A DNA stretch of 61,518 bases, the filler included, from Nemertoderma westbladi (taxonomy: Eukaryota; Animalia; Xenacoelomorpha): the NCBI GenBank assembly GCA_032718475.1. It is 3 parts of 3 records of this genome, joined end to end, with 100 filler letters (N's around TTAATTAATTAA, not from the genome) between each part and the next. Parts side by side here need not be neighbours in the genome. Positions count along the whole stretch, not along the records: positions 24,057 to 53,105 come from JAUCBJ010007362.1; 2 more parts are not named here. One strand, 5' to 3'. Below, in pieces: positions 15,706 through 57,215 of this stretch. The translations under genes and the position numbers were made by a program. The first letter of the stretch is position 1; each line of letters starts with the position of its first letter. A model generated the notes under the pieces. It saw only the letters and a program-made list of their open reading frames with translations, was not told the origin of the DNA and did not search any database.

Positions 15706-15971
15706 TGTTAGAAGTTGAAGTGTATATATCGAATATCATTATAATATAATAGCCCTACTAGCCAGACATGACTGCGGATATATAAACCTAGCGCAGTACA
15801 GCAGTACTTCTGACAGTCATTGTAGATGCTCAGTACCGGTTGCCGGTAGCACAATGATAAACAATAATGTAATACAACTAGAGTATTTAAATTTCCCACC
15901 ACACCATTAAGATACTGATCATCGCATAATATATTGTCATACAGTTTAAAGGTAAGTTACAGTTTCTAACA
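15706..15971 (-). repeat. Copia 5' LTR
   Basis: 266-bp direct repeat of 10958-11223. Confidence 0.96.
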
Positions 15972-20900: not shown

Positions 20901-21045
20901 CCAACTCCAACCTCTTCCAACCCTGTGGCTCCCAAACCAACTCCAACCCTGTGGCTCCCAAACCAACTCTAACCTCTTCCAACCCTGTGGCTCTCAAACC
21001 AACTCCAACCTCTTCCAACCCTGTGGCTCCCAAACCAATTCCAAC
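17945..21045. repeat. 36-bp minisatellite (~85 units) inside the transposase 5' coding region
   Basis: Unit tcttccaaccctgtggctcccaaaccaactccaacc encodes GVGLGATGLEEV on the minus strand. 44-bp variants carry an extra ctcttcca. Confidence 0.97.
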
Positions 21046-21383: not shown

Positions 21384-23242
21384 TTGTGGGGCGAGCCACG
21401 AAGTTGGCGGAGCCTTAGCGAATTGACACTGTTAGGGGGTGGGTCAATTTATGCAAATAGTTGTCGTCGTCGTCGTCGTCGTCGTTGTCGTCGTCGTCGT
21501 TGTCGTCGTCGTCGTTGTCGTCGTCGTTACGATTTTGACATGCTAATAACTTTGTCGGATTTAAAGCTGCCAAGTTGAAAATTTGTAGGTATCAATATGA
21601 GCAAAAGTTGAGATTTTTGAGAGACTTTCAGACACCATCAGTGCAATGGTCTCCCGCTAGAGGGCCACATGTCTAAACATTAAATGGCCACCCATTTCTT
21701 TGCTTTTAATCCGTTTAAGCTGAAACTTGGGAAGTATGTACTAGACCATTAGCTGTAAATTTCAAAGGAGGCTAATCTGTCTGCAGTTCTCCAGTCTGCC
21801 GCTAGAGGGCGAAATGTCCCGAATGTGAAATTATTCTTCCATTTAGTTGTTTATGATCTGATTACGCTGAAACTTGTCATATATGTACTAGATGACATCC
21901 TGAGTCTTTGTGTGGATTGTAATCGGTCCGAAGTTTTCCAGTCTCCCGCTAGAGGGCCACATGTCTAAACATTAAATGGCCACCCATTTCTTTGCTTTTA
22001 ATCCGTTTAAGCTGAAACTTGGGAAGTATGTACTAGACCATTAGCTGTAAATTTCAAAGGAGGCTAATCTGTCTGCAGTTCTCCAGTCTGCCGCTAGAGG
22101 GCGAAATGTCCCGAATGTGAAATTATTCTTCCATTTAGTTGTTTATGATCTGATTACGCTGAAACTTGTCATATATGTACTAGATGACATCCTGAGTCTT
22201 TGTGTGGATTGTAATCGGTCCGAAGTTTTCCAGTCTCCCGCTAGAGGGCCACATGTCTAAACATTAAATGGCCACCCATTTCTTTGCTTTTAATCCGTTT
22301 AAGCTGAAACTTGGGAAGTATGTACTAGACCATTAGCTGTAAATTTCAAAGGAGGCTAATCTGTCTGCAGTTCTCCAGTCTGCCGCTAGAGGGCGAAATG
22401 TCCCGAATGTGAAATTATTCTTCCATTTAGTTGTTTATGATCTGATTACGCTGAAACTTGTCATATATGTACTAGATGACATCCTGAGTCTTTGTGTGGA
22501 TTGTAATCGGTCCGAAGTTTTCCAGTCTCCCGCTAGAGGGCCACATGTCTAAACATTAAATGGCCACCCATTTCTTTGCTTTTAATCCGTTTAAGCTGAA
22601 ACTTGGGAAGTATGTACTAGACCATTAGCTGTAAATTTCAAAGGAGGCTAATCTGTCTGCAGTTCTCCAGTCTGCCGCTAGAGGGCGAAATGTCCCGAAT
22701 GTGAAATTATTCTTCCATTTAGTTGTTTATGATCTGATTACGCTGAAACTTGTCATATATGTACTAGAAGACATCCTAAGTCTTTGTGTGGACAGTAATC
22801 GGTCCGGAGTTTTCGAGTCTGCCGCTAGAGGGCGAAATGTAGGAAAGTGATAACCTTTGCGAATTCCTTGATCTTAATCTATTTAAGCTGAATTTTGGAA
22901 TATACAGTACCGGTATGTACTAGACCACATGCCTCGTCTTTGTGAGGAAGGTGATCGATCCGTAGTTCTTTAATATGCCGCTAGAGGGCTAAATGTATGA
23001 AAGTGAAAACCTTCCAACATTTCGTTATTTATGATCCGTCAATCGGAAACTTGGTAGATATGTAATAGACCATAGGATGTGGCTTTGTAGGGAAACTAAT
23101 CCTTCCTTCTTCAGTTACCCAGTCTCCCGCTAGAGGGTTAACGTTTTCCGGGAAAATCTTCTCCTATGTTTTTATAATCCTTTCGAGTTGATACTTAGCA
23201 TTAACTCATTTCACGTGCTGCGCGAAGGCCCCACTTCGTGTT
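21384..23242 (+). mobile_element. DINE-1/HINE-like (Helentron-associated) non-autonomous element
   Basis: 5' end gtggggcgagccacgaagt, then a (CGT)n microsatellite at 21462-21530, a central satellite, and 3' end cgtgctgcgcgaaggccccacttcgtg. Flanks are T-rich with no clear TSD. The same ends occur at 41893/43510 and 61008. Confidence 0.72.
21640..23135. repeat. ~146-bp satellite organised as a 292-bp dimer, one CCGCTAGAGGG motif per monomer
   Basis: Dimer starts at 21651, 21943, 22235 and 22527. Sub-units are 145 + 147 bp, with diverged monomers out to ~23135. Confidence 0.95.
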
Positions 23243-26471: not shown

Positions 26472-28803
26472 GTGCCTGGAGAGATCTGATTTCCAGATGG
26501 TATCCATTTTTGATAGAGCTACCCAAGCCTTTGCTTTCCTAACTTCTATGTCCCTTTTGCTACTCTCTATCCATGATCCAAGGTACTGGAAGTCGTCAAC
26601 CTTCCTTAGTTATAGATAGATAGATAGATTTATTTATACATTATGTAAAAACAATAACAAATACACCAAACAATGTACCGGTATAAAGGTATTGTCCAAC
26701 ATAACATATAGGATTACGCCTAAAGCTTTGCAGCTTATTTCCAAGGGGGTCCTTTATGTTACTTGGTTACAAATACAATATTACACTACGCTAACCTAAA
26801 ACCAATATAAAACGTAATTACACTATGTACATGTACAACTTTACCGAAAGCGTGACAATGTCCGACGCAACGATAAAGATGTAATGTACAGAACAATTTA
26901 ATATAAAACATAATTACAGTATAAATAGTAAATAATTAATAAACTAATAACTTACTGTAGGACTATTGTACCTATTTTTACATTGCACACGGAGGTGAGA
27001 TTTAACTGCAGATTTAAAAGAATGTTGATTATCTAGGTTTTTAATTTCATTTGGCAGAGCGTTCCAATTTTTAATGCCGTTAAAAAAGAAAGTATCAGAT
27101 TCAAAGGATTTACAATTCGGGAGGTAGAAGTTTGAAGCACTAGCTCTGGTACTGTAAGAGTGTGTATCGCGTACTCTGTTGAATTTTTGTTTTAGGTAAT
27201 TGGGACATTTACCATTATACACTTTATGCACATGGTTAAGGCGTAGCTGCTTAACTCTACTATCTAAGTTAAGTAGTCCATATTCAGAAAAGTCATCTGG
27301 AGTCAGGTGGTTAGTTGATTATTGTCAATGGTTGTCAAGTTTCCATCAACATTAAAGGTCATGAATTCGGTCTTGGTAGCATTTATATGCAATCCAACCT
27401 CGTTAGCAGCCCTCTCCACTTTATTTAGTAGAAGCTGTGCATCTGCTAGGGTATTAGAGAGCCGGGCGATGCCATCCGCAAAGTCGGTGTCTGTGGCTGT
27501 AGTTGCCGGATATCTACTACTTCTGCGTTCTTGAAGTGTGAATCCCAGGTCTTCACCCTTTGTGGCTGTCCTCATTGCGTAATCCAGCACAATTACAAAT
27601 AGTAATGGTGCTAATGTGTCACCTTGCAGTACCCCAGCCAGGATTGAGAAAAACTCATTTTCACCATCTGGTGAGAGTACCTGCGCTTCTGTGTCACAAT
27701 ATAACAATCCAATGCCAGCAACAATTACCTCTGGTATTCCATAAGATCTTAGGATTTCAAGCATTTTGCCTCTATGGATGGAGTCGAATGCCTTCTTGAA
27801 GTCCACAAAAGTCATGACTGCGGGGAGATTCTTTGACTTAATTCCTTCAATCAGTCTCCGTAGTGCAAGTATCTGAGCTATTGTTGATCTACTTGGTCGA
27901 AATCCGTTTTGGCTCTTACGCAGTAGTTTCTCTATGTGAGGCCTAATCCTATATAGAATCATTTGATTGTATATTTTGGCAGCTTCCACAAGCAGACAGA
28001 TCCCACGATAGTTTGTTGGTATACCGAGGTATCCTTTCTTGGGGAGAGGCTTTAGTTGACCTTTAGTCCAAATTGGTGGTGGCTTTTCCCCTTTTAACAT
28101 CCGGTTGCAAACATTCAATAATGGTTTGTTTAGCACTCCTGTTTTCCATACCTCCGCTGGGATTTCATCTAATCCACTCGCTTTATTATTGGACATGCTT
28201 TTAATGCTTCTTTGGAGTTCGGCAGGTGTGAAGTCCCCTGTTTCTATAGGTAGTGTCTTGTCATATATTTTCCTTGTAGGATAATGTTTGGTGGCTACCC
28301 AAGCAAGTTGCTGAAGTGATTTTTCCACTTCCCAACACGTTCTTCAGGACTATCGGCTTTGAGGCGCCCCCTTGCACAACTTTTCCGACCAGATACCTCA
28401 TTTACAGTTTGCCAGGTAAGTCTTGATTGTTGCTGTATGTGAGCAGTTGTAATTATGCTTCAGTTTTATCCTGTATGTACTTTTCCTGGCTGATGTTGTA
28501 GGCCAATTAAAGATCGTCCTTAGCTTTCTCAACCTTGTTAATGTTTTCGGTTATTGGTTGTTCGGTTTTAACTTTGTAAGCTATCTTAAGATCTTCTCTC
28601 TTACAAGTAACCTCAGAGTTTTGCCATGGCACATACTGTTTTCGTTTGGGTTTCTGGGGGATATGCCTCTTAGCAGATTCCTTGTGGGCTGTTATTATAT
28701 TCTGGTATATTGAATCGGTGGACTGGTCTTCATGCATTGACTGAAGTGCTTCAAAGCGGTTTTGAACTTCTACTGTGTAAGCATCCTTTACTGCATTGAC
28801 AGT
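26472..28803 (-). mobile_element. Second, 5'-truncated and frameshifted copy of the same RTE family
   Basis: Reverse complement of ~8385-10017. ORFs 27303-28328 and 28507-28737 are nearly identical in protein to the first copy, with FADD changed to FADG. Confidence 0.95.
26612..27310 (-). mobile_element. 3' fragment of a CR1/L2-group LINE nested in RTE copy 2
   Basis: ORF 26944-27231 (HSYSTR...FFFNGIKNWNALP...SFKSAVK), AATAAA plus (TCTA)n tail, and TSD TTAGTT (26606-26611, 27311-27316). Confidence 0.85.
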
Positions 28804-31354
28804 AATTTAATTTAATTTTAATGATTAAGGAAATTATGCCGGTTGCAGTGGCAGTGCGTTTTCTAACCGAAACAAATATCATCTCGTTGTATGAATTTGG
28901 ACCGGGGGGGGGGGGGGGGGGGGGGGGGACGTCCTTTTATAAATTTTTTAGATCCTGGCTCAACAATTAAAATTTTGCAGTTATAAGGATATTCGATGTC
29001 GCTAATCACGATATTAATTGTTTAAAATAATTTCTGGACTATATAACTGTCATTTTAGATGCTATTCTGGTCCCTCGAGACGAAAAATAGTCAGACAGTA
29101 CACAGCACTGTATACTGTAAGTGCCAAAAATTTAAACTGAAAAACGATGTCTTAGGTTGGATTATTCTGAAGGTATACTGTACGGGTGTTTGAGGTCGCT
29201 GATCGCGATAGAACTTATTAAAAACCTAGTCTAACCAACAAATTTAATGCTGGTATAAATTTGTGTTACTGTAGGCCTACAGTACTTGTACAGTATTTTC
29301 GTGCCACATTGGCACATATTCAATAATTAAATTCATAATTATTCTGAAACGATATTATTGATTGACATATACGAATTCTATTACATCCATTATTAGAAAA
29401 CCCATAATGTCATAAAATCAGACTGATTCGGTAATGGTTTTTTATTACCAAATTTGTGCTACCATGACCTACAGTACAAACAGTACTGTACTAAACATAT
29501 CTTTAGTAGGTCATGGTGCTACTCGTATTTCCAAAAGTTCCATAATCATTGAGGTGCAGTACGATATATTTCAGTGTCATGTTACATTCGCATCCTAGAA
29601 AACCCATAAGGCTATAAATCAGGCTGATTTGCTGGCGATTTTTGGTATCATATTTGCACTACTTATTTTTTTCGTATTAATATTCCCAGAAATCTTGTCG
29701 AATGCTATATTTGAGTTATATAATCGTGATCAGCATCTAAATACCTCTAAATACCGCTGCGCTGTTGTTTGCGTCTATAGGTGTATGTTATATTTAATCT
29801 CACTAAAGATACATGGCTACTATGGTAAACTAATACAATTAATAGCCGCTAGATGGCTTTAACTGCTGTGTCTATAATAGATTTAATAGACTGATAGATA
29901 GATAGATCTAATAGTTTCTTCTCCACTTTCTTTGTTGCACTCGGTCCTTCCACTTTCTTTATGTTTTCATTACTTCAAATGTTGAAGAGACGATGAGTAG
30001 GCAACAGCGTGTTTCTGCAAGGACTTCTAGAATATAGTATATATTCTATGTTAATGTTATGAATAAATTCCGATGAATGAATAAATGAAAAATGAATAAA
30101 TTTCACGAAGGTAGATAAATTTACCAAGCTGCATAGCGGTAGCTAGCTACAGGTATAATAATACTGATTGCCGTTGGGTAGAAGCCGGTGTGGATACGCT
30201 GATGCCCACGCCCACGCACGTGTTTTGTGCAAGTCTGCAGGTCTTTATTATTTGGGTCCTTCGTCTGTTGTAGTCACCCGCTGTGTGATATCGTTCTCTT
30301 GTATATTGTAATTAATTGAGGGTATGTTTTGCTTAATCGTCTTATCATTTTATCTGAGAACAGACAATTAAACCGAAAGTATTTTTATACCGGCCTTACA
30401 GCCTTATGCCATGTATGGGGGCAATAGCGCAGCAGTATTACCGGTATTTTATGTTGGCTGTCGTCAGCTGTAGCGCTGTAGGCTGTAGGCCCTGACTGAA
30501 ATACTTCTGTACTTACAGGTTTGCGTAGGCCTATATTATTTATTATGATTTTTGCTGTACCGGCTGACCGGTATCTGGCTGATTGCTGGGTTGGTGGTGA
30601 ATTCGTATTTCATTCAACCAAAGCAATGTAAAATATGCCGATATTATTATTATACAACACATTCAGACATTCTGACATTAGCCTACTGTCAGACTGTACA
30701 GTTCGGCAGTTATAGCCTAAGCTTAAGCTTAAGCCTACATCTGTACATGCCTTTACTGCAATATATTTATCAGTTTGTAATGCAGTTCTGTTACTTACTG
30801 TACTGTTGTATTCCGGTCCGGCAGACCCCCGAGACCGTTATGGTAGTTTTTTTATCATCAGTTTGTTACAGTGTTACATGTCAGTCTGCCAGTAGCCCAG
30901 TAGGCCTACCTACCAGCCTACTGACCTAGGCCTGTAGGCCAGGCCTGCAGGCAGGCCTACCAACAGACCAGAGCAGCAGAGTAACGGTAGGTACCGGTAT
31001 ATTCAATTTTGAATTTGGTCAGTTGGTAGGCCTAACTGCTAACTAAATATAATAGCCTACTGTAATACAGATATTCAGATAGCAGGATAGGCCCTACGGC
31101 CTCCCTATAGCTGTATAGGCCTACCATAAATTAATATTCAGACAGCCAGATATTACAGTATTAGACCTACAGCAGTACCGGTACGTACTGCAGTATTATA
31201 GCCTACAATATATAATCAGTCTGGCAGTAGCAAGCCTCGTCACTGAATTACCGGCATCCTAATTCGAGTGCTTTGCCCATTGCTGATTGCCAGTTTGCAG
31301 CTTTGTGTGCGTCAGTTCGCACCGCACAGTTACTGCCTTCTACGCCCGGACGCC

Positions 31355-33640
31355 ATGGATCACGCCAGTGATACAATATATATCAATCGCAGCGAATCTC
31401 CTATCGCGAGTTCTGTTGATAGTTATTGCGTTTCCAGCACAACTCCATCCGTGTCAGTAAACTCGAGACCGACCAGTCCTACGGCCGATGGCGGTTCGAC
31501 CAACTGTGACGGAACGGCGCCTTTTCCCGCTCCCAATACCGCGCTAACTTCCACCGTCGATGCGTTGTTAACCGCGCCACCTCCCTTAATTAAACCGCGG
31601 AAAAAGGACGGAAAAAAGAAGAAATCCTCCCGAAAATTATCCGATTCCTGTGAAACACCGTCGCCATCCGCGGTTGACGGACCGAAACGCTCGACCCGCG
31701 TAAAACGACTTAAAGTTTATACCGAAATCGACGAGATTTCTTTCTCGGAAGACGGATATGAATCAGACAGCGACGAGAGCGATGTTAAACCGGTTGTGGA
31801 CGACTCCAACGCAAAGTTCCACCTCCTCAACCCTTTCTCCAAGGGCGCAGTCGTTGTCGATAAGATCCTCGCGTCGAGGATTAACTCTGAGGGTGGCGAG
31901 GAGTTCTTCGTGAAACTCACCCACCTGTCGTACCTACATTGCGAGTGGATGAACATCTCGCAACTCGAGGCCAAGGATAAACGGGCGCCGCAGAAGGTCC
32001 GTCGATACAAAGAGAAGCGGGAGGAAGCCGGTGGGGTGGAGGACAACGAGGAGGAGCCCTTCAATCCTGAGTTCATCCAGGTGGACCGGGTCATCGACCT
32101 CTGGAGCGACCCGAAACGGACCGACGCGGAAGGGAAGGAGGAGGTTTACTACTTCGTTAAATGGCGACTTCTCCCCCACGAGGAGGCGACCTGGGAGGAA
32201 GCCAAGGACGTCGATAGCACCAAGATAAACGAGTTTCTAGCGAACAGAGTCATACAGGAAACCTCGGTTGTTAAACCGCTGGATTGTAAACCGTTGGAAG
32301 AAGACAAAGTCTATAAGAGCGGTAACCGGTTGCGTTGTTACCAGCGGGATGGCGTCAACTGGATGTTATTCTGTTGGTTCCAGAACCGGAACTGCATCCT
32401 CGGGGACGAGATGGGTCTGGGTAAGACGATCCAATCGATCGCCTTTCTCCAGGAGATCGTGGACCGCGGTATCCGCGGTCCCTTCCTCGTCATCGTGCCG
32501 CTCTCCACGCTCGGGAACTGGGCCCGGGAGTTCGAGACTTGGTCTACCGGAATCAACGCGGTCGTCTACCACGGGGGCGCGACGAGTCGGCAGATGATCC
32601 GCGAGTACGAGCTGTACCACCGGGACGAGCAGGGCAACCGGGTCCCCGGCGTCTACAGGTTCACCGTCGTCGTTACCACCTACGAGATGGTCTACACCGA
32701 CTTCGAGGTCCTCCGGAAGATCCCCTGGCAGAGTCTCATCATCGACGAAGCCCATCGACTGAAGAACCGAACCTGTAAACTTTTAGACGGTCTGCGTTCC
32801 ATCGATACGAAACATAAAGTTCTCCTTACGGGAACTCCGCTGCAGAACAACGTAGACGAACTCTTCAGTTTGCTGAACTTCCTCGAACCGACGAAGTTCG
32901 CATTCCGCGACGATTTCCTAAGGAAATTCGGCGTCTTAAAAACCGAAGAACAAGTCGATAGTCTCAAGGGTTTACTGAAACCGATGATGTTGAGGAGGTT
33001 GAAGGAGGACGTTGAGACGAACATCGCCCCTAAAGAAGAGACCATCATAGAGGTTGAGTTGACTAACATACAGAAGAAATACTACAGAGCGATTCTAGAA
33101 CGCAACTTTGAGTTCCTCAGTAAGGGTTTAACCTGGAGTAACACGCCGAATCTAATGAACACGATGATGGAGTTGAGGAAGTGTTGCAACCATCCATTCC
33201 TTATAAAGGGAGCGGAGGAGAAGATACTGGCGGACGTGGTGAACCCGGAGGAGTCCACCTTCCTCCACACCCTCATCCAATCCTCCGGGAAGCTCGTTCT
33301 CATCGACAAACTCCTCCCCAAACTCAAGGCCAACGGCCATCGGGTCCTCATATTCTCCCAGATGATTAAATGCCTCGACATCATCGAGGATTACCTCGTC
33401 CAGCGCGGGTATCTGTTTGAACGGATCGACGGGAGGATCCGCGGCAACGACAGACAGGCCGCCATCGGTCGGTTCACCACAAACCCCGACAGGTTCGTCT
33501 TCCTTCTCTGTACCAGAGCCGGCGGTCTCGGTATAAACCTCACCGCGGCCGACACCGTTATCATCTACGACTCCGATTGGAACCCTCAGAACGATCTGCA
33601 AGCTCAGGCCCGATGTCATCGGATTGGGCAGGATAAACAG
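31355..33640 (+). CDS. CHD7: CHD7/kismet-family (CHD6-9) remodeller, coding exon 1: two chromodomains and SNF2 ATPase
   Basis: Kozak gccATGg at 31355. Motifs [71 protein letters not shown] and [21 protein letters not shown]. Donor CAG|GTGGGT at 33640/33641, phase 0. Confidence 0.92.
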
Positions 33641-33754
33641 GTGGGTTATATATATTTTGACTCTATGACACTGCAGGCGCCATTTTGTATATGTAACAAC
33701 TCGGGCTACTTAATGGAGGTTTATAGGTTCAGCTACTGACAACTCCCTCGGATA

Positions 33755-34022
33755 TCAGCCAACCAATTTATTTAATTGATGTCACCTGGCAACAATACTC
33801 GAGCTGAATATTTATTTGTACGTCCCTCCTGTTTCACTCTAACAATAAGGCCGGTAGGTCCGTTGTTAGAGATAGGATATGCAACTAAAGACCGACCGTT
33901 CAATAGAAGTGGATTAGGTGGGATAGTGAATGTCAGGGGCTAGTGGCTGAACTGGTTAGCGTTACTGATGAGGCCTGATAGGCTGAAACGTACGTATAGC
34001 GCGGGTTCAACCCCCGGTGACG
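33755..34022 (+). mobile_element. Retrozyme/SINE-like copy with an intact hammerhead core
   Basis: Homologous to 4529-4795 and begins with the ccaatttatttaatt monomer junction. A box 33944-33955, B box 34004-34013. Confidence 0.82.
33959..34002 (+). ncRNA. Minimal type I hammerhead ribozyme (predicted cleavage after GUA, 33996)
   Basis: Stem I gcgtta/tagcgc, core CTGATGA 33965-33971, stem II ggcct-gat-aggct, GAAA 33985-33988, palindromic stem III ACGTACGT, triplet GTA. Confidence 0.87.
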
Positions 34023-35626
34023 TGATTCCATGGTATTGGTATTGTTTATTAGTGTCATATGAGTTTATATAGTTAAATTACGAGACACATGACATACATT
34101 AAATTGCCTAAGTACAAATGTTATAAATAAAAACAATACTTTATAAAATATGTTAGTTGAAATAAGAACTGTATAAAGTTCTATTTAATATTTTAACCCC
34201 ACATAATGTATGTTCAAAGTTTTAGTGCAAAATTTTAAAATAAAGGTCTAGTGCAAATATACGTTAAAATAAATGGAGTTGATTAAAAAGTAACATCATG
34301 TACTGACCTGACACATGTACAATTGAAACATTATAATATGTACAAGGGTCTAGTGCGAAAAATATGTCAAAACGGGTTGTATATAATGATAACTGCTTGT
34401 ATAACAGGATAAGTAAAAATGTGAGAACAATATTCGTACGAAAGGGCGTGTGTTAAAATAAATTGCCTTTTCTGTCACAAGTAGAATTTGAAAACAATAT
34501 GATCAAAGGCGGGTGTTAAATAAGAAATGCATGGTAAAATTGTAACAATATACACCATGACCTGGAATATAGTGTCCTTATTCTGGTACATGCCTCACCC
34601 CCCCCCCCCCAAAAAAAAAAAATTTCTACAAATCTTAATGAGATTGCATGAAATTTGAAACAGATATAGTTTCACCTCCCTCCTCCTTGCTGGGTGAGCC
34701 ATAATTTTTATTTTCGCTTTCGTTCTTTAGCTACAAACGTTTAAAAAAGTGTCTCCGTCGATATTGCACCAGTTACACAGCAGTTATTCTTCAAACATTT
34801 AGTGATTTGTTGGTACTAGACAGCTGACCATGCAAGCGATTCCAAATATGTGAAAAATATTTGAATTTGGTTGGGAAACTGCTGAGATATGGGCATTCGA
34901 ATTTTGCATGTATTTGCTTCTGCTGCAGGCCATTTAGGCCTATTCTATTTAATAAAAACACAATGTTCTAGAACATTTTGTTTATCTCATAAGTAGCTTG
35001 GCAACAATGCAATACGTAAATGATAATACTAGTACACCATGTCGCGTAATATAGTGTCATTTTCTGATGACACGGACCCCCCCCCCCCAGATTTTTCTAC
35101 AAATCTTTATCATATTGCTTGAACTTTGAAACATAACAAGTTCCACTCACCGTCGATGACCCCATGAAGCCGGAATTTTCGATTTTGCCTTTACATTTTT
35201 TTTTTATAGGCTTTTTAAAAAAGTGTCTTTTGCCAAATCGCACCCTCCGTGTCGTGGCCATTCTTCACATTAGTTGTAATGTTTTCATATCATTAGAAAG
35301 CTTGCCTTGCAAGGATTCATAATATGTAACAATAATATATGAATTTCGTTGAGAAACAACTGAGATATAGGCGTTCAAAGATTGCAAGAAGTATCGTTCG
35401 CTGAAGGCCATTTATTCTATTCAATAAATACACAATATTCTAGAACGTGTTATTTATTTTATGAGTTGGTAGGCAACAGCAGAATGCCTATCCAATAGTA
35501 CTATTGTGTAGCTATTCATACTTAAACAAAATGTTCCAGAACATCGTGTATTTATTAAATAGAATAAATGGCCTTCAGTGAACAATAATTCTTGCAATCT
35601 TTGAACGCCTATATCTCAGCTGTTTC

Positions 35627-38317
35627 TCAACCCCGGGCGTGCACCCTTCGCATCCCTGGGTCCCGGATTCCGATTCCCCCATGCCGAATGGGGAGGAGGA
35701 CCAACTCCTCATCCACCGATCCTGGAGACGTTCCGAACAACGCCGGGATAAAACAGCGCAATAACTCCTCACGGATCGGCGCCAGGTCACCATCCCTAGT
35801 GTCCACCACCCGAAGCAGGTAGTCCCACTCCGCCTGGACGCAGCGGGTCATACCTGTATGGGCGGTCTGCGGATACGCCTCCGCCACCTCCGAAGGCCGA
35901 CCAATACTCCACACCCACCCCGCGACTTTCTCCGTAATAAAATCGTGGAGTCCCTGTGCATCGCCCACATAGCCACCGAGGAAGCGATGACCCGAGACTA
36001 CCCGGATACCGCAGTCCCCGAACACCGCCTGCGCCCTTGTCGCGAACTGTGGCTTAACCACCAGGTAGCTCTTGGTAGGCTCTGGTGTATACCCGATGCG
36101 GGGCCCCCATTGGCGCAACCGATCCCGCCACTTCCACACACCGGTAATAGAACCCGCCGACGAGGAGTCGTCAGCGTACCAACACTGTGTTTGGAAGCAG
36201 GTGGAGCTGCCAGTAGACTGTGCTGGTTGATCGGGTTGGTTACTGGGTGTTGTGTCAGGCGGGTCTCCCGGCGGTCGGACAGGCTGGTCTCGCAATGGTG
36301 GGTCAGGCGGGTCTCCCAGCGCTGGGTCAGGCTGGTCTCCCATCGCTGAGTCAGGCGGACCTCCCGGCGATGGGTCAGGCGGGTCTCCCGGTGGTGGGTC
36401 AGGCGGGTCTCCCGGCAGTGGGTCTGGCGAGCCTACCAGTGGTGGGTCAGGTGGGTCTCCCGGTGATGGGTTAGGAGGGTCTCCCAGCGGTGAGTCAGAT
36501 GGGTCCGCTGGCTGTTCCTCTTCAGTCGAAGTCAGTGATGACGGCGTTTCTTCACAGGGCGTCCAGGGCTGGCCCCCAGAAAGCGTGGGAGACGAGCCGG
36601 CGGGAGGCGTAATCAGCGGATCTCGTGGTGGCAGGTCACCGACATCCCGCAATGACCGGACCAAGGAGAGTGTCCCACAACCATACCCCAACATCGCCGC
36701 CGGATCCCCCTGGGTATATCCTTCACGACTCCACAGAGGGTTGTCGGATCCCTGGAGGTAGAGGGCCGCATGGCCATTATAGGCGTTGTACAAATACCGG
36801 GAACACCGATGCCAGTACAGACGCGCGTTCCAGAGGGCCACGGGTCGACTCAAACTATTGAAGGCATTGGCTGCGTCGACGAGGAGCATGCACTCGGTTG
36901 TGTCTCGCTCGAACATCGCCGACATCGCGTGGACTGCGCCTTCGATCCCAGCTTTCACCCCCACGCAGAGCTGGTCCGCCCCACACTCCGTGATGACATC
37001 CATCTTTGTGGCCGCTGTAAGGCAGCTGGTCACCAATCGATAAAGGACTTCACCAATACCAATTGGCCGGACTCCGGGCTCCTTGTCGATGGCTATGAGG
37101 CGGCAGGCACGGAGAGCGCGGATCTCGCCCCATGGGACCAAGGTGTTGGCGAGACGACGAGCCAACCCGGCGACTGCTTCACGCAGTCGTGAGCTATGGG
37201 CCTCGTACCGGGTGAGGAGAGCACTCCAAAGTTCGGCGTCTCCGCCTATGGGGCCGGCACTGCCATGCAGATAACGCGAAACCTTCAAGACAAGCTGCCC
37301 TGTGATATCCACCTCTTCAAAGGGGGGTAACTCCTCGCACCGCTCGAACGAATCCGGGGATACTTTCATTTGAGGCGGGTGTTTACTCTCCAGGATGTCA
37401 CGAACGGTGACACCAGCCGGCTGACCCTCGGCCTGGGTCTCGGGGTCCAAAACCCCGCCACTATCTCGATCCGTCACCATGCGGACAGCGGCCCGGTTCT
37501 GTCCGGCCAGAATCTTCTGGTTGTAGACTCTAGCCAGATCAGGTGGTGCTGAACCCTGGCGTCTAGCAAACTTCAAATTGCAGCGCTCCGCCTCGACTAC
37601 CAACTGCCGAAACTCTTCCCGTTCCCACATTCCAATCCGTCGTAATATTGTGCGTCGGAGGATATCCGCCCCTTTTACCACTTCCGGATCCCGCTGGAAC
37701 ACAGTCGCGATGAAGCAAAGGGGGCGCTCAGAATGGTGGACTCCCTCGGTCAATTTCTCCACCTCACGGGCAAGAAACTCCGCCGCTTTTCGCCCCACGT
37801 TGCCACCGGGCACTGTATAGAGGCGACCTGAAAGGCCGGCAAGTCGAGAGTGGCGGGCTCCCCAGTCCGGATCAGTTGAAACGCCAGGGGCATTGAGCCA
37901 CGGTCCCCCAAAGGCGCTCTCCAGGCGGTCTGAAGTCGATGGAGGTAGAGGACGAGATTCTCCCGCAGGAACCCGGGTCGCTGGGTCAGCGCCCGTTTCG
38001 ACTTTGCGTTGTAACGGGATCTGAGTTATAGCGGCGCTCGAATATGAGTCTGAATCAGAAGTCGAATTGCTGTGATACACGGCCACGTCGTCCTCCTCGA
38101 GGGACAAACCGACTGGAGATACAGCTGAGGCAGGGATCGCACTTGTGGCGCGCCTGGTGGTGGCTGACACGGTGAGGCTGTGAGGATTCTTGCAGTCGTC
38201 ACAATCCGACGGTTTGCAGCCAACACAGGGACGTCCCCCGCGGGCGCAGCGACACTTGGTTGATGGGCCACAAGAGCCGGCCATGCACCCGCAGCATCGC
38301 TGGGAACTTTGGGACAT
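35627..38317 (-). CDS. CRE-clade-like non-LTR retrotransposon RT ORF (896 aa), lacking the C-terminal RLE endonuclease
   Basis: N-terminal Cys-rich CxCx4Cx5CxCx6CxxC. RT motifs GVRPIGIGEVLYRL, QLCVGVKAGIEGAVH, LVDAANAFNSL, GYTQGDP, WYADD, RFLGGYVG and LPIRHGGIGI. Confidence 0.85.
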   Translation of the reverse strand: MSQSSQRCCGCMAGSCGPSTKCRCARGGRPCVGCKPSDCDDCKNPHSLTVSATTRRATSAIPASAVSPVGLSLEEDDVAVYHSNSTSDSDSYSSAAITQIPLQRKVETGADPATRVPAGESRPLPPSTSDRLESAFGGPWLNAPGVSTDPDWGARHSRLAGLSGRLYTVPGGNVGRKAAEFLAREVEKLTEGVHHSERPLCFIATVFQRDPEVVKGADILRRTILRRIGMWEREEFRQLVVEAERCNLKFARRQGSAPPDLARVYNQKILAGQNRAAVRMVTDRDSGGVLDPETQAEGQPAGVTVRDILESKHPPQMKVSPDSFERCEELPPFEEVDITGQLVLKVSRYLHGSAGPIGGDAELWSALLTRYEAHSSRLREAVAGLARRLANTLVPWGEIRALRACRLIAIDKEPGVRPIGIGEVLYRLVTSCLTAATKMDVITECGADQLCVGVKAGIEGAVHAMSAMFERDTTECMLLVDAANAFNSLSRPVALWNARLYWHRCSRYLYNAYNGHAALYLQGSDNPLWSREGYTQGDPAAMLGYGCGTLSLVRSLRDVGDLPPRDPLITPPAGSSPTLSGGQPWTPCEETPSSLTSTEEEQPADPSDSPLGDPPNPSPGDPPDPPLVGSPDPLPGDPPDPPPGDPPDPSPGGPPDSAMGDQPDPALGDPPDPPLRDQPVRPPGDPPDTTPSNQPDQPAQSTGSSTCFQTQCWYADDSSSAGSITGVWKWRDRLRQWGPRIGYTPEPTKSYLVVKPQFATRAQAVFGDCGIRVVSGHRFLGGYVGDAQGLHDFITEKVAGWVWSIGRPSEVAEAYPQTAHTGMTRCVQAEWDYLLRVVDTRDGDLAPIREELLRCFIPALFGTSPGSVDEELVLLPIRHGGIGIRDPGMRRVHARG
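36200..36500 (-). repeat. 24-bp repeat (PPGDPPDP) within the RT domain
   Basis: ggtcaggcgggtctcccggNggtg units. Confidence 0.85.
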
Positions 38318-38504
38318 AATTAATGCGATTTTAATAAAAAAATCAGGCCTAGTATATAATATAATAATAAGCAGTGCAATAGTTTATGTAAAATTGTTGC
38401 GTTATAATTGTCTATGTTATAGTACTTTGGTAGTGGTGATAATGTCAGGTAACAAGCTGGATGCAGTCGACTCAAATTCACCAAATTTACTGCAATCGAC
38501 ATGT

Positions 38505-38750
38505 ATCTAGCCGATCACGGCTGTGTGTTGCTTCGATCGGCCTGTACCTAGCCGAACATGGCTGTGAGTGGCTTCGATCGGCCTGTACCTAGCCGAACAC
38601 GGCTGTTTGTTTCTTCGACCGCCCTGTACCTAGCCGAACACGGCTGTGTGTGGCTTCGATCGGCCTGTACCTAGCCGAACATGGATGCATGTTGCATCGA
38701 TCGGCCTGTACCTAGCCGAACATGGCTGTGAGTGGCTTCGATCGGCCTGT
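38505..38750. repeat. 41-bp tandem repeat (~6 units), probably the 5' UTR of the CRE-like element
   Basis: cctgtacctagccgaacaYggctgtgNgtggcttcgatcgg starts at 38541, 38582 and onward. Confidence 0.9.
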
Positions 38751-41700
38751 ATTCAGATTCAGATATTGTTACATATTATGAATCCTTGCAACTCAAGCTT
38801 TCTGATAATATGAAAACATTACGACTAATGTGAAGAATGGCCACGACACGGAGGGTGCGATTTGGCAAAAGACACTTTTTTAAAACGCCTATAAAAAAAA
38901 TGTAAAGGCAAAATTGAAAATTCCGACTTCATGGTAACAACCACGGTGAGTGGAACTAGTTGTGTTTCAAAGTTCAAGCAATATGATAACGATTTGTAGA
39001 AAAATCTGGCGGGGGGTCCGTGTCATCAGAAAATATGACACTATATTACGGGACATGCTGTATATGGATATTCATACATAATCAAAATGTTCTAGAACAT
39101 TGTGTATTTATTAAATATAATAAATGGCCTGCAGCAGAAGCAAATACATGCAAAATTCGAATGCCAATATCTCAGCTATTTACCAACCAAATTCAAATAT
39201 TTTCACATATTTGGAATCCTTGCATGGGCAGCTTTCCACTAGTACCTACAAATCACTATTTTTTAGACACTTTTTTTAAACTTTTGTAGATAAAGAATGA
39301 AAGCGAAAATAAAAATTCTGGCTCACCCACTAAGATGAAACTAACTCTGTTTCAAATTTCATGCAATCGCATTACGATTTGTAGAAAAAAAATGTTTTTT
39401 TTTGGGGGGGGGGGGGGGGGGGGGCATGTACCTGAATAACGACACTATATTCCAGGACATGGTGTATAAGACGAATGCGAAAAAATATATTACGTTTTGT
39501 TTAAAATACTATGGTCGTTACAAAATTTATGTAAAAAATGTGTTATGAGTAGAAGACTGTAATTTCCAAAACATTTGGAAGCATAATAAGTAAAAAATAA
39601 ATACAATTTGTTTGCACCATGTAAAATATATAAATTAAAATTTACGTACTGTCTCCCCTTTGAAATATCAATATTAAAATATAGTAGAATGTTCTAGATC
39701 TTAAAAATAAGGTAACAGTTTTGAAATGATATTAATTGTTATGTCCTAGAGGGTGGTGAGGAATAGTGCACGTCGAAGGTCCGATTTACATGGTGGGATG
39801 CCGGTACAGTTTTTGTAGTGGAATTTGGATGCTGCTGATGTGTTGCAGAGGCAGCAAATGCAATCGGTATCTGCTTTCCAGCATGGTTTGTTGCAGATCG
39901 TGAGGTGACAACCATTGGATATCAAGAGAGCAGCTGCACGGCGACGGAAGCCAGTCAGACCTTCTAGACGGACATCGCAATCGGGGTCACTGTGGTTGTC
40001 GATGGCATTTAGTATGGGGGTGGATGAAGAGTACTTACTGACACCACACCATAGTTTAAAGTAAAAAGCACGAACGCGCTGTATATGTTCTAGAGAGGCG
40101 ATTTCTTCACTAGATATGAATATGTCACAACCGTAGGAGATGGAGGGGTAAACTACAGACAGCCAGATACGTTTAGCGGAATCCAGTGATATTGCCGACA
40201 TGTTAATTTTCGACGCCAGTAGGATAATACCGAGGTAATTGAAGCAGCTTACAAATTCGAGTTTAGAACCTTTATATAATGAGACGTCTTTGTTGGACAG
40301 ACGACCCCCTCGACGAAATTTTACTGCTTTGGTTTTTTTTAGATTTACAGTTAGATCGTTTTCCTTACAGTATTTGGCTAATTTATGAAGACCATGTTGT
40401 ACGTTCTCGATTGACTTTCCATAAATTACTAGGTCGTCAGCATACATTATAACAAAACAACCAACTGCAATTATACTACAAGGTGAATCAGATACAAATA
40501 GACTAAAAAGGAGAGGAGACAGTTTATCCCCCTGGACTACTCCGATAGTCTGTGCTATGGGGTTTAATAAATAGCAACCAACGCAAATATGCACAAAATT
40601 GATAGCTATAAGTAAGTACCCAAATACGTGATATAAACTTTTTGCTGATTCCAAGACGAGAAAGTTTTTGACATAAAGTTTGCCTGTTAACAGAGTCAAA
40701 AACCTTAGTAAAGTCAATAAATACACAATATACATGGCCACCGGCAGGCTGAAGGGCACTGCGGATATAGTTATATAATACATTAACAGCCATTTTAGTA
40801 GAACGGTTTATCCGAAATCCATATTGTTGAAAAGGTAAGATGTTTTGATTTTCGGCCCAAGTATATAATCTGTGATATAAAATAGCTGTATATTATGTTT
40901 TAAGTAAACAAGATACTAAGGCTATACCCCTGAAGCTGTCGGGTGAGCTCTTTGGACCCTTCCCTTTATATAATGGTAAGAGATATGATGCTAGCCAGGA
41001 TACTGGGCAGGTAGCAACACTAAAACACAGAGAAAATAACGCTAACAGGTATGGCAAAAGTAACCCCAACCCGGGTTTCAAAACTTCGTTGGTCACCCCA
41101 TCTGGTCCGGCTGCTTTATGGAGTTTGTGCCCATTGACAGCAGCAGACACCTCTGCGGCGTCAATTGGTCTGTCTAACGTTGGGCAGGAATTCGTTGGAA
41201 TACCCTCGGGCATTCGGAGGTCTACATCTTTTGATAGGAGCGCTGTGAAGTGGTTGGACCAGGATTCTTCTGAAACCTGTTGGGCTACAGGTTTCGCCTG
41301 TGAACCTGACTTCAGTAGGTTCCAGAACTTAGATTTGTCTGATTGACATTCGTCGATGAGTTTGTGTTCGGTGTGCGCTTTATGCAGACGTTTCTTGTTG
41401 CTTATTTGTTGCTTATATACACGTTGGCGCTCGGTGTAGGTTGTACGGGTCGATTCTGTGTTATTTTCTATCATGTGGTGTGGTCTAAGGCATCTGAGGT
41501 TTTCCTATTGGCTGTATAACATTCCCGATCGAACCACGGCTTAGACTTTCGTCTTGGTGCTGTAATTGTAAAATCTGAGATAGCTTTGGTTATAAAATAT
41601 CACGCAGTGTCAACTCCACTGTTTAGAGCTTGCTGAAAAAGTGTTTCATCGAGGCAGTCCGCGAGTTTATCGAGCTGTATACGACGGATTGGATTAGTTC

Positions 41701-41892
41701 GTTGTTTTCTGTTATCTGGGCTATTGTTTAGGTTAAGTTTTACAAGTACCCGTTGATGTTTGGTGTTTATTGTATGTAAAATATGTATTGATAATAAATC
41801 TATCAGACATTCGTTGATGAACACAAGGTCAATACCACTGTTGCCATTCCAACAGTAATAGGTTGCTGAGGCAGAGTCATTTATGGACATTT

Positions 41893-43510
41893 ATGTGGGG
41901 CGAGCCACGAAGTGAGTGAGCCTTAGCGTAGGGGTACCATTAATCAACCTGCCGTTCTGTCGTTCTGTCGCGTTTTTTTTTCAGTATTTTATTATAAACG
42001 TTAATAACTCGGCCAATCCTTGATGAAATCTATCCAAACTTGGTACACATGTTGTTTGGCAAAAGTTTGAAAATTTTCCAAGTAGAATTTGCGTGGGGCC
42101 TTCGTGCAGCATCAGTGTAACTGCAATTACAGTTATAATTAATTTATTTATCCAAATTTAAAATGCGTTAAATTATTATTACTGTAGGATAAATCAGCTG
42201 GGTTTCTGACAAATTTTGCAATACATTGGGGCTGTCTGCCAATCTGCATGTACCATGTATACCGGTACTGTCAGGCTGTACTCAATCCCTGAATCGAGAA
42301 TCCTGCAATCAGTCAATACTGCAATACTGGTCAGCCGGTACCATACACTGCAGACATGCCATATCATGTAATCTAATTAAACATGGCCCCGGCAACCCTT
42401 GCGGTGATTATAGTTTAGGCCTAATTAGCCCAGTACCGGCACCGGTAATAATAATATAATAGTTTAGAAGTTACCGCTAATCATTCAGTCATTGGCACGG
42501 TACACCGTATTGCTGTACTGCCGTTGTAGTGCGCACCGTAGGTACCACCCTACTACCGGTACCGGCTGACCGGTGGCAACTAGCACTTCAGCACTTGCAC
42601 AGCAACAGCACTACCGGCGATACACAGGTTGGAATTTATGTAGAGTTTGCTCAACAGTACAGATATAAAATAGTTATCTAAATTATATATATTACTATTG
42701 ACAAGTATTGAAATATATACCGTTATTCGTGTTATCAGTATTTGCAACATCTGACATTGAAGAGGTGAGAGAAGATGAATACCGGCACTCAACAAAACCA
42801 ACGCTTATCACAGGTCGGTATGGTTACCTCGAAACCGGCGCGACTGTCCACTCGAATACAACTTCAAAACACATACGCCAACAATAAACTGAAAGCGAAT
42901 CGAACGTCTTCAGAAGAATCTGTCATTGGGACGAAGAAAAGGAAGCCGAAACCACGGGAATGGACCACAGCTAAGATTGAATGCTCCCATTGTCAGATGT
43001 CAGAGTTCCTGGACCGAAATTGAAACACCAATTGCCGATGGGCATGATCTCTCAAACCAAAACTTCCTCTGCGGGGTTTGCGCGGCAGTAAAGATTGAAA
43101 GTCTGGAAGCTGGCATCCCTAGGTATTATTATTATAAAGAGCGTCAGCCTGCGTTTAATAAATATATTTTAATACAAAACTGGTCGAACGCAAAGAGGCT
43201 TATAATGAAGACGAGTACTGCATTGATTATATTCCTATAAATCACCTGGCTTTGCATATTGAACGTGCGTTTGGAAATAAGTTCGTGCTACCCTTCCGTG
43301 GGTGGTAGATGTCGCGATTTTGTATTGGTGGGTGGGGGGATGGGGGGGGGGGGGGGGTGCAGATTAAAAGGGGTGAACACGTACTGTCCCCCTTTGATTA
43401 ATTGGTGGTGTGGGTTAATCTCTCATAACCTGATTTTGTGATACAGTCGCACAATTTTAATTTGTATCTCATAACTGGGCCTCGTGCTGCGCGAAGGCCC
43501 CACGAACGTG
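41893..43510 (+). mobile_element. Second HINE/DINE-like element with different internal cargo
   Basis: Same 5' end (gtggggcgagccacgaagt...gagccttagcg) and 3' end (cgtgctgcgcgaaggccccac) as 21384-23242. An additional inverted 3' end lies at ~42093-42111. Confidence 0.68.
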
Positions 43511-45009
43511 TAGATTTATTGGTGTATCACATTTCGCACGTATTGTATTTACAGCTGCAATTAGTTCCAAGAGAATGTCGGTAACATCCGTAGCGGGTTT
43601 ATAGTAACCTGTAATGAGTACGAGAAATGTTGTCTGGACTGCGATGATCGATGTGGATTTATAAACAATCTGTTGCATTGTTGATATTTTTGAATTTATG
43701 GCAACTGTCAGACCTCCGGATGGGCGGCCTTTGACTCCTTTTTCACTGGGTACATTGTGGCACGTGAAGCCCGATATTACTAAATCTGTAGTCAAGGTTT
43801 CAGTTATAGTAATATATCAGATGTTTCAAATGTATCATCCATTGTTGTTTTGATCGTCGTTTGAGCTCCTTCCACATTCCATACCACAATATTTAAAGTA
43901 CTACTGTTAATGTTTTGGGGACTATTTTTATTGGGGATCTAGAATGGTAGTTCCTGTAACAGTTTCAGATTGTATATAGATATGTATGTATTTGGGATAC
44001 AGATATTGGTGTTTCTATAAACTGGCAGGGTAACGGTAAGGTTTCGAGCACCCTTGACATAGGAGTATGGTTTTGTTTCCATTCAGAGTTAATTTTGTGA
44101 GAGGTGGGTGAGATGTTTCCGTGTGATTGTTGTTGGCCTGCAGTCAATCAAGGCCAACCGAATGTGTTATTTAAATAAATCGAATCAGTACAAATATGAT
44201 TAAATTAAATAGGCTTATTACTTCATTAATTTTATACTGTCACGCTACAAGAGCTACATTATGCTATTGTCATGGAATGTTTATTTAAATTAGGTATGAC
44301 ACTGGGGATACCGGTAGCCATTTCTAAACAAATTATATTCAAATTGATAACAAAGCAGAAGCCCAATTAAAGCAGTAATTGAACACTAAACCTAATTCAC
44401 TATGACTCTATAATCTTCGAGATTTTTTCTAGGAACACGTCTTTGTGTATTCTCCATTGTTCTATCGTTTTATCATCGACATAGCCATTATATGCTATGT
44501 CTACGATTGTTTACCGTACACCTACTTTAGTACAGAACTCCAATAAATTGGTGTGAATTTCATCAATATTATTTAACATTTGAGTTTTTGAGTTTTATTT
44601 TAACATTTTAACATATTTGAGTGTTTTATTAAATTAAGAGTTCCGAACCCAAATAGGTTGACATGATGTAACAAAATCATAAATAGTTCAACAGCGTTAA
44701 ATACACTCGTGTAGGCGTGTCATAACACACTGAAAAGTGCTACTTTTACATAATGATGTAAATACTTATTTAATTAAATTATTGCGAACTACTTATATGT
44801 TGAGCGCCATATAATCCGAGGTAAAAGTGCATTATAGTCCCCTTTCTGGAAGAAATGTATTCCCTAATCTCATGTAATCTGTGTAGCAAAGCAAAATGTT
44901 AAAAATATTACTGGTTTAATTTTTCAAGCTTGACTCCTGAAAGGAATAACTGTAGGCCGTAATAAACAATTGATTCCATCTTAGTGGCCCATCGTGTTGG
45001 TTCCTGTTA

Positions 45010-45790
45010 TATATCAGATCGGCCCACTACAATCTGACCTAGATATATTATACTCGTGGAGTGTAGCTTGGCAACTTTGTTTCAACATTAAAAAATGCAA
45101 AGTAATGCATATTGGCCATAATAACCCCGAGTTCCCTTACCATCTCGGCGAATCAGTGCTATCAGTGTCAGGGTGGGAGAAAGACTTGGGGGTGACCTTC
45201 CAAAACACCCTCACATTCGGGAAACACATTGCCACCATCGCAAAGAAAGCCAATGGAATAACTGGCCTTATTGCTCGAACCTTTAAACATCTGGACAGTG
45301 TCACGCTAGTCAACTTATTCAAAGCCCACGTGAGACCAATTCTAGAATATGCATCCCCAGTATGGTCGCCACCTTTTGGAATCTGTCCAACGTCGGGTGA
45401 CCACACTATTTCCTAATCTCCGTGACTTAGCCTATCCGGAAAGATTAAAGCGACTAGGTCTCCCGACCCTTGAGTATCGCCGTTATCGCGCCGACCTGAT
45501 CCAGGTGTACCGTTACCTTGCGGGTATCGACAACGCTGACTGCAGCATGTTCGATCTTTCCACGACTGGTCTACGCGGCCACTCATTCAAGCTCGAGAAA
45601 CTCCGTGCTCGGCTGCTGCAGAGAAACACGACATTCCACTTCCGATTCATCGATCCCTGGAACTCGCTATCCAATGCCGTTGTAACTGCCCCCAACCTTA
45701 AAACCTTTTAACTGTTTAAAACCCGTTTGAACTCCCACTTTAAAGATTTCCCGCTTAAATTTACCCCATCATGGTGGTCCATGTAAAAGT
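45010..45790 (+). mobile_element. CR1-clade LINE 3' fragment
   Basis: LQSDLD...WQLCFNIKKCKVMHIG, EKDLGV, VRPILEYASPVWSP, LESVQRR, LRGHSFKL and WNSL, with one frameshift. Confidence 0.9.
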
Positions 45791-46724
45791 AAAATATCTT
45801 CCATAGTAACTCTTAACTTTTTACTCTTTTTACTTATTAACTTTTAATATATTTCTCGCCTTAATTATTTTTTATCACCACTTTTTAACTTTTTCTAACC
45901 TTAATTAAAACTTTAGATTACCACTTTTTAACTTTTTAACTAACTTTTTCTAACCTCTATTAAAACTTTTTTATCACCATTTAATTATACACATTAGACC
46001 TCGTTAATATTTAATATCTTAATAACTAATTGACATACTGCATTTATCTACTTTGATCCTATATAATCGACGTTTTTAACTATGTACATTTAATAGTTTT
46101 TACTCGCGGCTTTCTGTTCTTTCTTAATTTAATTTTTAACTTTCTTTTAATTTTAACCAAATAATTAAATATAAGTTTTAAAAATGCAACCTATAATTAA
46201 ATCAAGTTTTTAAATATATAAATTTTTCTTCGTCCTATGCCTATTTGTGTAAACCATAATTTTATTTCACGTTCGACTTTGTGTAATTTAAGATATTTTT
46301 AAGCCCTACGCTCCACAGCCATAATTTACATTACTTTTCACATGTTTTTTTTTAAGTATGATTTTATGCTACATACTTTCGTTTACGTACACTCTTATCA
46401 ACTAACATTAATTAGTGCTAGGTAGTAGTAGGTAAGGTACTTAGTTTGTTTCAGTTTAAATATTTTGACAGTAGTTTTATATTATGTCTGCACAGGTGCA
46501 ATAAGCTTCTGCTTCCTCCACCTCATTATTTCATTATTAAACATTAAACATATTATGTTAAATTACTTTTGTTTCCGGATATTTCAGGAAAATCCCCATC
46601 TTTGTCGAATATTAATACCCAATTCCCATAATTATGGGTCTCTTATTAACCAACACTTTAGACTCGACAAATGCTACCGTATTGATAGATTTAATAAATC
46701 AATTACTTATGATTGTCTCCCCAG

Positions 46725-57167: not shown

Positions 57168-57215
57168 CACAAACCCAACAAAGCAGAAAGGGTAAGGACT
57201 GGCTCGCTACATTTG

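Follow-up and report, generated by a model that had tools for sequence, protein, structure and literature searches.

A dispersed repeat of Nemertoderma westbladi with a hammerhead ribozyme motif, minimal and of type I, enclosed by tRNA-like A and B boxes

Genes and repeats of the window

The window, the whole stretch of 61,518 nucleotides of Nemertoderma westbladi DNA that was analysed, contains host genes, mobile elements and satellite arrays (Table 1). A CHD6-9-type helicase gene is represented by very long exons, between which an intron filled with mobile elements was inferred. Dymeclin is encoded in a single open frame with 43-48% identity to bilaterian dymeclins, and no close relative was found among the 120 matches listed. 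Together with the CHD gene, this single frame suggests an intron-poor animal genome.

Several retroelements were recognised. A 918-aa frame was read by eye as a non-LTR reverse transcriptase with a cysteine-rich N-terminus and gave no Pfam match at 1e-3; it is interrupted by a tandem array and flanked by inverted repeats. A near-intact LINE with endonuclease and reverse transcriptase domains, RTE-like by eye, has an inverted partial copy of 96% identity elsewhere in the window. The coding region of a Copia-type LTR retrotransposon, broken by stop codons, lies between two direct repeats of 270 nt (98.9% identical) that are likely its LTRs. Long satellite arrays with three different unit lengths complete the inventory.

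Table 1. Positions in the window of the repeat copies, the parts of the motif and the neighbouring genes and elements.
Feature	Position	Strand	Remark
CHD6-9-type helicase gene, exons	31247-33640, 46725-49169		join in frame
CHD6-9-type helicase gene, intron	33641-46724		~13 kb, inferred
Dymeclin	57196-59286	+	696-aa frame
918-aa frame	35627-38383	-
Tandem array in the 918-aa frame	36247-36505		24-nt units
Inverted repeats around the 918-aa frame	34549-35334, 38764-39468		~800 nt
LINE	7503-10454	+
Inverted partial LINE copy	27311-28803	-
Copia-type coding region	11264-15475	-
Likely Copia-type LTRs	10954-11223, 15702-15971
Satellite array	17935-21045		36-nt units
Satellite array	21649-22840		292-nt units (two ~146-nt halves)
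Satellite array	49918-51376		22-nt units
Inverted repeat pair bracketing copy 2	1845-2686, 5666-6483		holds a 68-nt tandem array
Moderately abundant repeat	34031-34232		differs from the ~349-nt repeat
Copy 1 of the repeat	33763-34029	+	starts at AT-rich unit junction, stops just before T6 run
Copy 2 of the repeat	4527-4886	+	whole 349-nt unit plus 11-nt repeat of its AT-rich start; ribozyme decayed
Copy 3 of the repeat	6481-6560	+	first 80 nt of the unit only; 93.8% identity to copy 2
Inverted 5'-truncated partial copy	4435-4526	-	T-run to unit end; directly before copy 2
T6 run, likely Pol III terminator	4805-4810	+	17 nt after B box
A box	33944-33955	+	direct sequence reading
D-arm-like hairpin holding A box	33946-33949:33957-33960	+	sequence
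Minimal type I hammerhead, overall	33959-34002	+	descriptor match
Stem I, 5' strand	33959-33964	+	sequence; 6 bp
Core CTGATGA	33965-33971	+	sequence
Stem II	33972-33976:33980-33984	+	sequence; 5 bp, 3-nt loop
GAAA	33985-33988	+	sequence
Stem III	33988-33995	+	sequence; perfect 8-nt palindrome
GUA triplet	33994-33996	+	sequence; predicted cut after 33996
Stem I, 3' strand	33997-34002	+	sequence
B box	34004-34014	+	sequence
T-arm-like hairpin with B box inside	34002-34016	+	sequence; 4 bp, 7-nt loop
Outer, acceptor-like helix	33930-33935:34018-34023	+	computed pairing; 8 nt out of tRNA register

The motif was found to be one module of a non-coding repeat of about 349 nt, of which three copies lie in the window. 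Copy 1 is situated on the sense strand of the inferred intron of the CHD6-9-type gene and shares 83% identity with copy 2 over 273 columns (33765-34022 against 4523-4795). All three copies open with the same AT-rich word, and two of the three (copies 1 and 3) share this 5' start and miss the 3' end. In copy 2 the B box is followed by the T6 run, an arm of 80 nt and a repeat of the AT-rich start word. The unit has a GC content of 44% and no ORF of 120 aa or more.

One of the three copies, copy 2, is preceded by an inverted 5'-truncated partial copy of the type known from Penelope-like elements (PLEs). The inverted arm (4435-4515) matches 4886-4805 with 93.9% identity over 82 nt, so that inverted repeats of about 82 nt surround the insertion. 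Copy 2 begins and ends with one 11-nt word, which was considered as a target duplication. This was rejected, because the core of the word is also found at the start of copies 1 and 3 and at the end of the inverted arm. Self-BLAST of the window revealed no direct LTR pair around any copy, and no tandem arrangement of copies was found in the window. The repeat unit, the T6 run after the B box and the inverted partial repeat of one copy had all been missed by the initial annotation of this DNA.

Other repeats abut these copies. The moderately abundant repeat downstream of copy 1 starts exactly where copy 1 breaks off, and may have removed its terminator and arm. The right-hand member of the inverted repeat pair that brackets copy 2 ends exactly at the start of copy 3.

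Anatomy of the motif and searches for related sequences

By direct reading, the arrangement put forward by the initial annotation was confirmed: at 33944-34014 an A box and a B box enclose a minimal type I hammerhead whose stem III is palindromic, and the motif is real. The core CUGANGA, the GAAA and a UH cleavage site are all present at 33965-33996, and helices I (6 bp) and II (5 bp) with a short palindromic helix III are those of a minimal type I ribozyme, which supports the earlier assignment to the hammerheads that tend to cleave as dimers. In the tRNA-like module the hammerhead occupies the place of the anticodon and variable arms, as had also been proposed. The distance from A box to B box is 48 nt in both full copies. 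A full stem I takes bases from both the D-like and the T-like arm, and cloverleaf and ribozyme are therefore partly exclusive. The equivalent of the outer helix in copy 2 has 5 bp (4703-4707:4792-4796), with one A-T versus G-C difference between the copies.

Copy 2 had been called upon as support for the pairings. Its motif (4709-4795) differs from that of copy 1 at 9 of 87 positions; the coordinates and both changes cited at the time are real, but these are one-sided exchanges between G-U and G-C and not compensatory. Three changes that damage the ribozyme had been left out, namely A6G in the core at 4741, C15.2G at 4762, which breaks the palindrome, and an A-A mismatch in stem I at 4736. Copy 2 is a decayed copy and is weak support; the majority letters of public contigs, given below, are better.

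A hammerhead descriptor, written post hoc, matched the window once, at this site and with both boxes present. Among 300 windows simulated with a first-order Markov model there were two matches, neither accompanied by either box. The bare core pattern is near chance (seven matches against a mean of 3.06), and the B-box pattern occurs three times on both strands of the window, two of these within the ~349-nt repeat. Of the checks proposed earlier, the descriptor search pointed to this site alone and the Rfam hammerhead model did not: no match reached gathering score in the Rfam scan of the window, and RF00008 scored the motif at 18.6 bits (gathering 48.5; E 0.25) with the wrong topology. A search of copy 2, at 4.7 kb, with the Rfam model gave no hammerhead match.

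Searches for tRNAs were negative as well. ARAGORN found none in the repeat copies at its default threshold of 100 or at 90; at 80% it calls the copies but also 41 of 300 shuffles. RF00005 did not match the motif copies at E up to 10. A tRNA gene was rejected on the ARAGORN results at 100 and 90, an acceptor-like helix out of register and the lack of an anticodon arm. A type III hammerhead using an upstream GUC was also rejected, with stem I unpaired at the junction. A further CTGATGA...GAAA at 57877-57912 on the minus strand runs antisense to the dymeclin coding sequence and fails the descriptor.

Three sequence collections with little animal DNA were scanned, and no second type I nested case was found in JGI metagenomes, IMG/VR and GTDB. 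The family-type pattern gave no match in the JGI metagenomes, a collection poor in animal DNA; the core-plus-B-box pattern gave 57 loci in IMG/VR, where animal DNA is scarce, none with both hammerhead stems and B box. With a stricter pattern, 51 metagenome and 35 GTDB loci were retrieved, again from little animal DNA, and one of these 86 passed the type I descriptor. This locus (L118:525-672) is an archaeal tRNA whose long intron contains the two hammerhead core words, and was read as a chance match.

A separate observation concerns four contigs of one JGI metagenome (L067:1-125, L071, L079:1-126 and L096), each of which opens with an identical stretch of about 123 nt. Its type III hammerhead scores 27.6 bits with RF00008 (E 0.0095), below gathering. 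A hairpin resembling a T arm comes next and contains a perfect B-box word, and upstream there is a word loosely like an A box. The sequence after the shared stretch differs among the contigs and in L071 resembles a fungal WD40 gene with introns. The stretch probably represents one end of a young mobile element, and it may be another instance of a hammerhead enclosed by tRNA-like boxes.

Copies in public DNA runs, transcription and movement of the repeat

The family was surveyed by comparing the contigs of DNA runs X1, X2 and X4, from three studies under one organism label, with 33640-34240. The stretch is present in five DNA runs of three studies, the best of which may be the source of the window itself. 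At 80% identity or more, 777 family contigs were found in X1, 68 in X2 and 1403 in X4; run X6, from another organism, gave none, which is no proof of absence. Summed depth, which is not a copy number, was 90,000-105,000 over the ribozyme against 11.5 on the flank in X1 (~8,000-fold), 207,000-251,000 against 20.9 in X4 (~11,000-fold) and 3,200-4,300 against 35 in X2 (~100-fold). Read from depth, the family would comprise hundreds to thousands of copies. Over copy 1 the depth rises at 33766 and drops after 34017-34038, and it declines toward the 5' end of the unit.

Among the 40 variant rows listed of 74, six fall within 33936-34022 (33936, 33941, 33951, 33962, 33978 and 33984), all of them outside the core, the B box, the palindrome and the invariant A-box letters. 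The only A-box variant among them, A/G at 33951, is compatible with the box consensus, and one of the six lies in loop 2. At 33962 (about 99% of depth) and 33984 (64-84% of depth) the majority letter is C, which turns a wobble pair of copy 1 into a Watson-Crick G-C pair. One X2 contig carries a 4-nt insertion in stem I. Each of the listed variants accounts for roughly a third of depth or more in at least one run, and less frequent changes in the core may exist. Judged from these 40 of 74 rows, the core, the palindrome and the two boxes are all preserved in the majority letters of the family.

Loose ends of other copies run on from 34022, 34024 and 34029 into the T-run. In at least 47 contigs of X1, at least 41 of X4 and at least one of X2, the sequence after 34022-34029 continues with the T-run and arm of copy 2, which shows that T-run and arm belong to the family. 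Eight X4 contigs carry the 3' arm of the unit in direct orientation immediately before 33763, and one contig each of X1 and X4 jumps from 34024 back to 33767; head-to-tail joints therefore exist, in few contigs.

The repeat could be read as a MITE-type DNA transposon with terminal inverted repeats of about 85 bp and the tRNA-hammerhead module as cargo. Copy 2 and the inverted arm do form 94% identical inverted ends in AT-rich DNA, and the 5' starts are fixed in all three copies, but the left arm is missing from copies 1 and 3, in the eight X4 contigs the arm precedes the unit start in direct orientation, and no clear target duplication was seen by eye. Such an origin is regarded as highly improbable.

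The A and B boxes of the repeat are those of a predicted type 2 Pol III promoter, and such boxes are read on the DNA by TFIIIC. Since the boxes act on DNA, each intact genomic copy keeps the whole promoter whatever the RNA does. The earlier idea that only tandem or circle-derived copies would rebuild a working promoter was abandoned, as cutting would split the RNA and not the DNA promoter. The cut site implies only that the template of a new copy must be RNA that is uncleaved, tandem or circular. The T6 run is the only run of four or more T on the plus strand of the unit, was found in the loose-end consensuses of X1, X2 and X4 and, judged from the sequence, is likely the Pol III terminator. 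Of 2000 shuffles of the unit, 1.6% have their sole T4 run in the same 30-nt slot and 7.7% have a T5 there, both figures being post hoc. With T6 in place, Pol III would make an RNA of about 105-110 nt and not one of unit length. Copy 2 spans the cut site, with 243 nt before it and 117 after, and its template was therefore an uncleaved, tandem or circular RNA.

It was considered whether the tRNA-like module acts mainly as RNA, the promoter being incidental: the cut halves, held by the outer helix, would have 5'-OH and cyclic-phosphate ends that attract tRNA ligase, or would serve as a handle for reverse transcriptase. The D-arm-like, T-arm-like and outer helices can form, the cut falls at the position of the anticodon arm, and RtcB closes retrozyme monomers far better than self-ligation does (PMC7229834). 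Yet some nucleotides belong to both the cloverleaf and the 6-bp stem I, so that the two are never complete together; the outer helix lies 8 nt off the tRNA register; the ARAGORN calls appear only at 80%, as with the shuffles; and a single T6 downstream of the B box is a sign of Pol III. This role seems rather unlikely.

The short Pol III RNA, with A box, hammerhead, B box and U-tail (~105-110 nt), might also be a helper encoded by the element, which would pair through the palindrome with a single copy in a longer RNA and switch on cutting in trans. If so, unit-length RNA would be freed from dispersed copies, host pre-mRNAs with a copy, such as that of the CHD intron, would be cut, and ends like those of tRNA splicing would be left for tRNA ligase. 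This proposal is a tentative one and is unlikely.

The reading preferred here, with a probability of roughly 0.6, is that the repeat is a non-LTR retrozyme, predicted to be copied by PLE enzymes, with a likely tRNA-derived Pol III unit in which a hammerhead replaces the anticodon arm. The sequence itself presents the order A box, hammerhead, B box and T6, a dispersed high-copy family, some head-to-tail joints and one inverted partial copy. The motif exceeds chance and supports the retrozyme reading, and a 349-nt non-coding unit with a type I hammerhead lies within the 150-450 bp given for animal retrozyme units (PMC7229834). One reason to favour the involvement of PLEs is the inverted 5'-truncated neighbour of copy 2, since such copies have been described at the 5' end of PLEs (PMC8557442). 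Another is that a PLE protein, once purified, cleaves DNA rich in AT and begins reverse transcription within the RNA, beyond the hammerhead (PMC11167929), at 85-92 nt downstream of the cut as computed from that paper. Retrozymes have also been proposed as PLE derivatives (bioRxiv 10.64898/2026.07.22.740005).

In this scheme TFIIIC would bind the DNA at both boxes, which are separated by 48 nt, and an RNA of ~105-110 nt ending at T6 would be produced by Pol III. The ribozyme would be weak alone, and two RNAs would pair by the 8-nt palindrome and cut each other after 33996; short palindromic stem III motifs are described as poor cutters alone and better as dimers (PMC4209133, PMC7229834). Unit-length RNA would arise not from the short transcript but from host read-through or from leakage past T6 across tandem copies, and could be used uncut, or cut and circularised by tRNA ligase. 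A Penelope-type reverse transcriptase/endonuclease would then nick AT-rich DNA and begin copying 117 nt past the cut site, where the AT-rich junction of the unit lies, giving permuted units, tandems and inverted partial copies. The dispersed copies would decay afterwards, as copy 2 did.

Several findings count against the retrozyme reading. Two of the three copies in the window are cut short at the 3' end, opposite to the outcome of target-primed plus-strand copying, and the T6 run blocks a simple model in which the promoter drives the next unit. Head-to-tail joints were seen in few contigs, so that tandem data are thin, and the window holds no autonomous PLE that could be found. Only one of nine predicted dimers cleaved in the published series (bioRxiv 10.64898/2026.07.22.740005). 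On balance, membership of the non-LTR retrozymes is likely, as judged from these sequence features.

Folding predictions were mixed. For two copies of 33957-34004 the lowest-energy fold is a double hammerhead (-32.0 against -17.4 kcal/mol for two monomers), an ordinary energy for a 48-mer dimer that 53 of 200 shuffles reached. In the whole tRNA-like module a rod beats the hammerhead in ViennaRNA, both as monomer (-31.3 against -12.4 kcal/mol) and as dimer (-70.4 against -39.4 kcal/mol), the hammerhead being modelled without the outer helices. This result also counts against the retrozyme reading, as does the circular 349-mer of the decayed copy 2, which was no more stable than 100 shuffles (z +1.09). 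The predicted dimer of copy 2 is not a double hammerhead, and the monomer folding z-scores (0.21, -0.81, 0.86 and -0.13) were uninformative. Energy models penalise hammerhead junctions.

The preferred rod raises the thought of a Penelope-type retrozyme whose hammerhead is folded away or depends on PLE protein, so that uncut RNA is copied and the motif is kept for another step. The penalty on junctions weakens this argument, and among the variant rows listed the majority letters retain all catalytic positions and the palindrome. A silent hammerhead is very improbable on this account, with some precedent: minimal PLE hammerheads cut poorly (PMC4209133), and that of an Anolis PLE cut only with protein and was dispensable for insertion in vitro (PMC11167929).

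A SINE of the Sm-alpha type, moved by a LINE such as the RTE-type element of the window and using the ribozyme to free monomers from multimers, seems quite improbable. Pol III boxes with a hammerhead are the design of Sm-alpha as published, and 5' truncation predicts the observed drop of summed depth toward the 5' end, but this slope is confounded by the divergence of copy 1 in its 5' part. The unit has its tRNA-like part in the 3' half and not at the head, an A-tail is absent, and the 3' ends of unit and LINE do not match at word size 7. The inverted partial copy and the tandem joints fit PLEs.

Comparison with known ribozyme-bearing and Pol III-promoted elements

No hammerhead between A and B boxes was found in the text of the literature searched, which included PMC10886601, PMC8490949, PMC2770079 and PMC2220036; the layout may be on record in Repbase/Dfam or in some primary papers. 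Like the Helenus TRIMs (PMC10886601), the repeat is non-autonomous and carries tRNA-derived A and B boxes in its interior, not at a SINE head. Helenus TRIMs have paired LTRs, PBS/PPT and target duplications of 4-6 bp, with no ribozyme in the text of that source, and no paired direct LTRs were seen around the copies of the repeat. In the supplement of the same paper the core word occurs five times and the palindrome word not at all; of these five, the two inspected by eye are not hammerheads between tRNA boxes.

With Sm-alpha and Sj-alpha of Schistosoma the repeat shares a tRNA-related Pol III promoter joined to a type I hammerhead in a short high-copy repeat, and the need of those elements for tandem copies in propagation was counted as a further likeness (PMC6765202, PMC2770079, PMC8490949). 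The earlier placement of the Sm-alpha ribozyme outside the tRNA-like head was borne out by a review, in which the promoter comes first and the ribozyme after it (PMC6765202). In Nemertoderma, unlike in these elements, the ribozyme sits between the A and B boxes with stem I overlapping the D and T arms, and the repeat has an 8-nt palindromic stem III, a 3-nt loop 2 and a T6 run that closes the module.

The minimal hammerhead with a palindromic helix III resembles those of the pLTRs of PLEs (PMC4209133). PLEs also share the inverted 5'-truncated copy at the 5' end (PMC8557442) and, some 100 nt past the cut, a junction in AT-rich sequence (PMC11167929). Unlike PLEs, the repeat is without an ORF and has tRNA-like boxes flanking the ribozyme, and its stem II of 5 bp is without the bulge usual after position 9 of PLE hammerheads (PMC4209133).

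Animal non-LTR retrozymes are similar in their non-coding unit of about 350 nt, a GC content below 50%, the type I hammerhead and the occurrence of monomers with some tandems (PMC7229834, bioRxiv 10.64898/2026.07.22.740005). The predicted circle of the decayed copy 2 differs in its z of +1.09 from the self-paired retrozyme circles that have been described. According to a review, retrozymes seem to carry no promoter (PMC7761336), and the A box, B box and terminator-like run set the Nemertoderma repeat apart from them. Sm-alpha is the known exception to the absence of a promoter. The family described here holds a complete predicted Pol III unit of about 110 nt with the ribozyme inside, a size at which promoter, dimer cleavage, trans cleavage and closure by tRNA ligase all become accessible in a single short synthetic RNA. 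The family also suggests that, in nature, a ribozyme can take the place of the anticodon arm in a tRNA scaffold, and in the reading preferred here the family joins SINE-like promoters to Penelope-type mobilisation.
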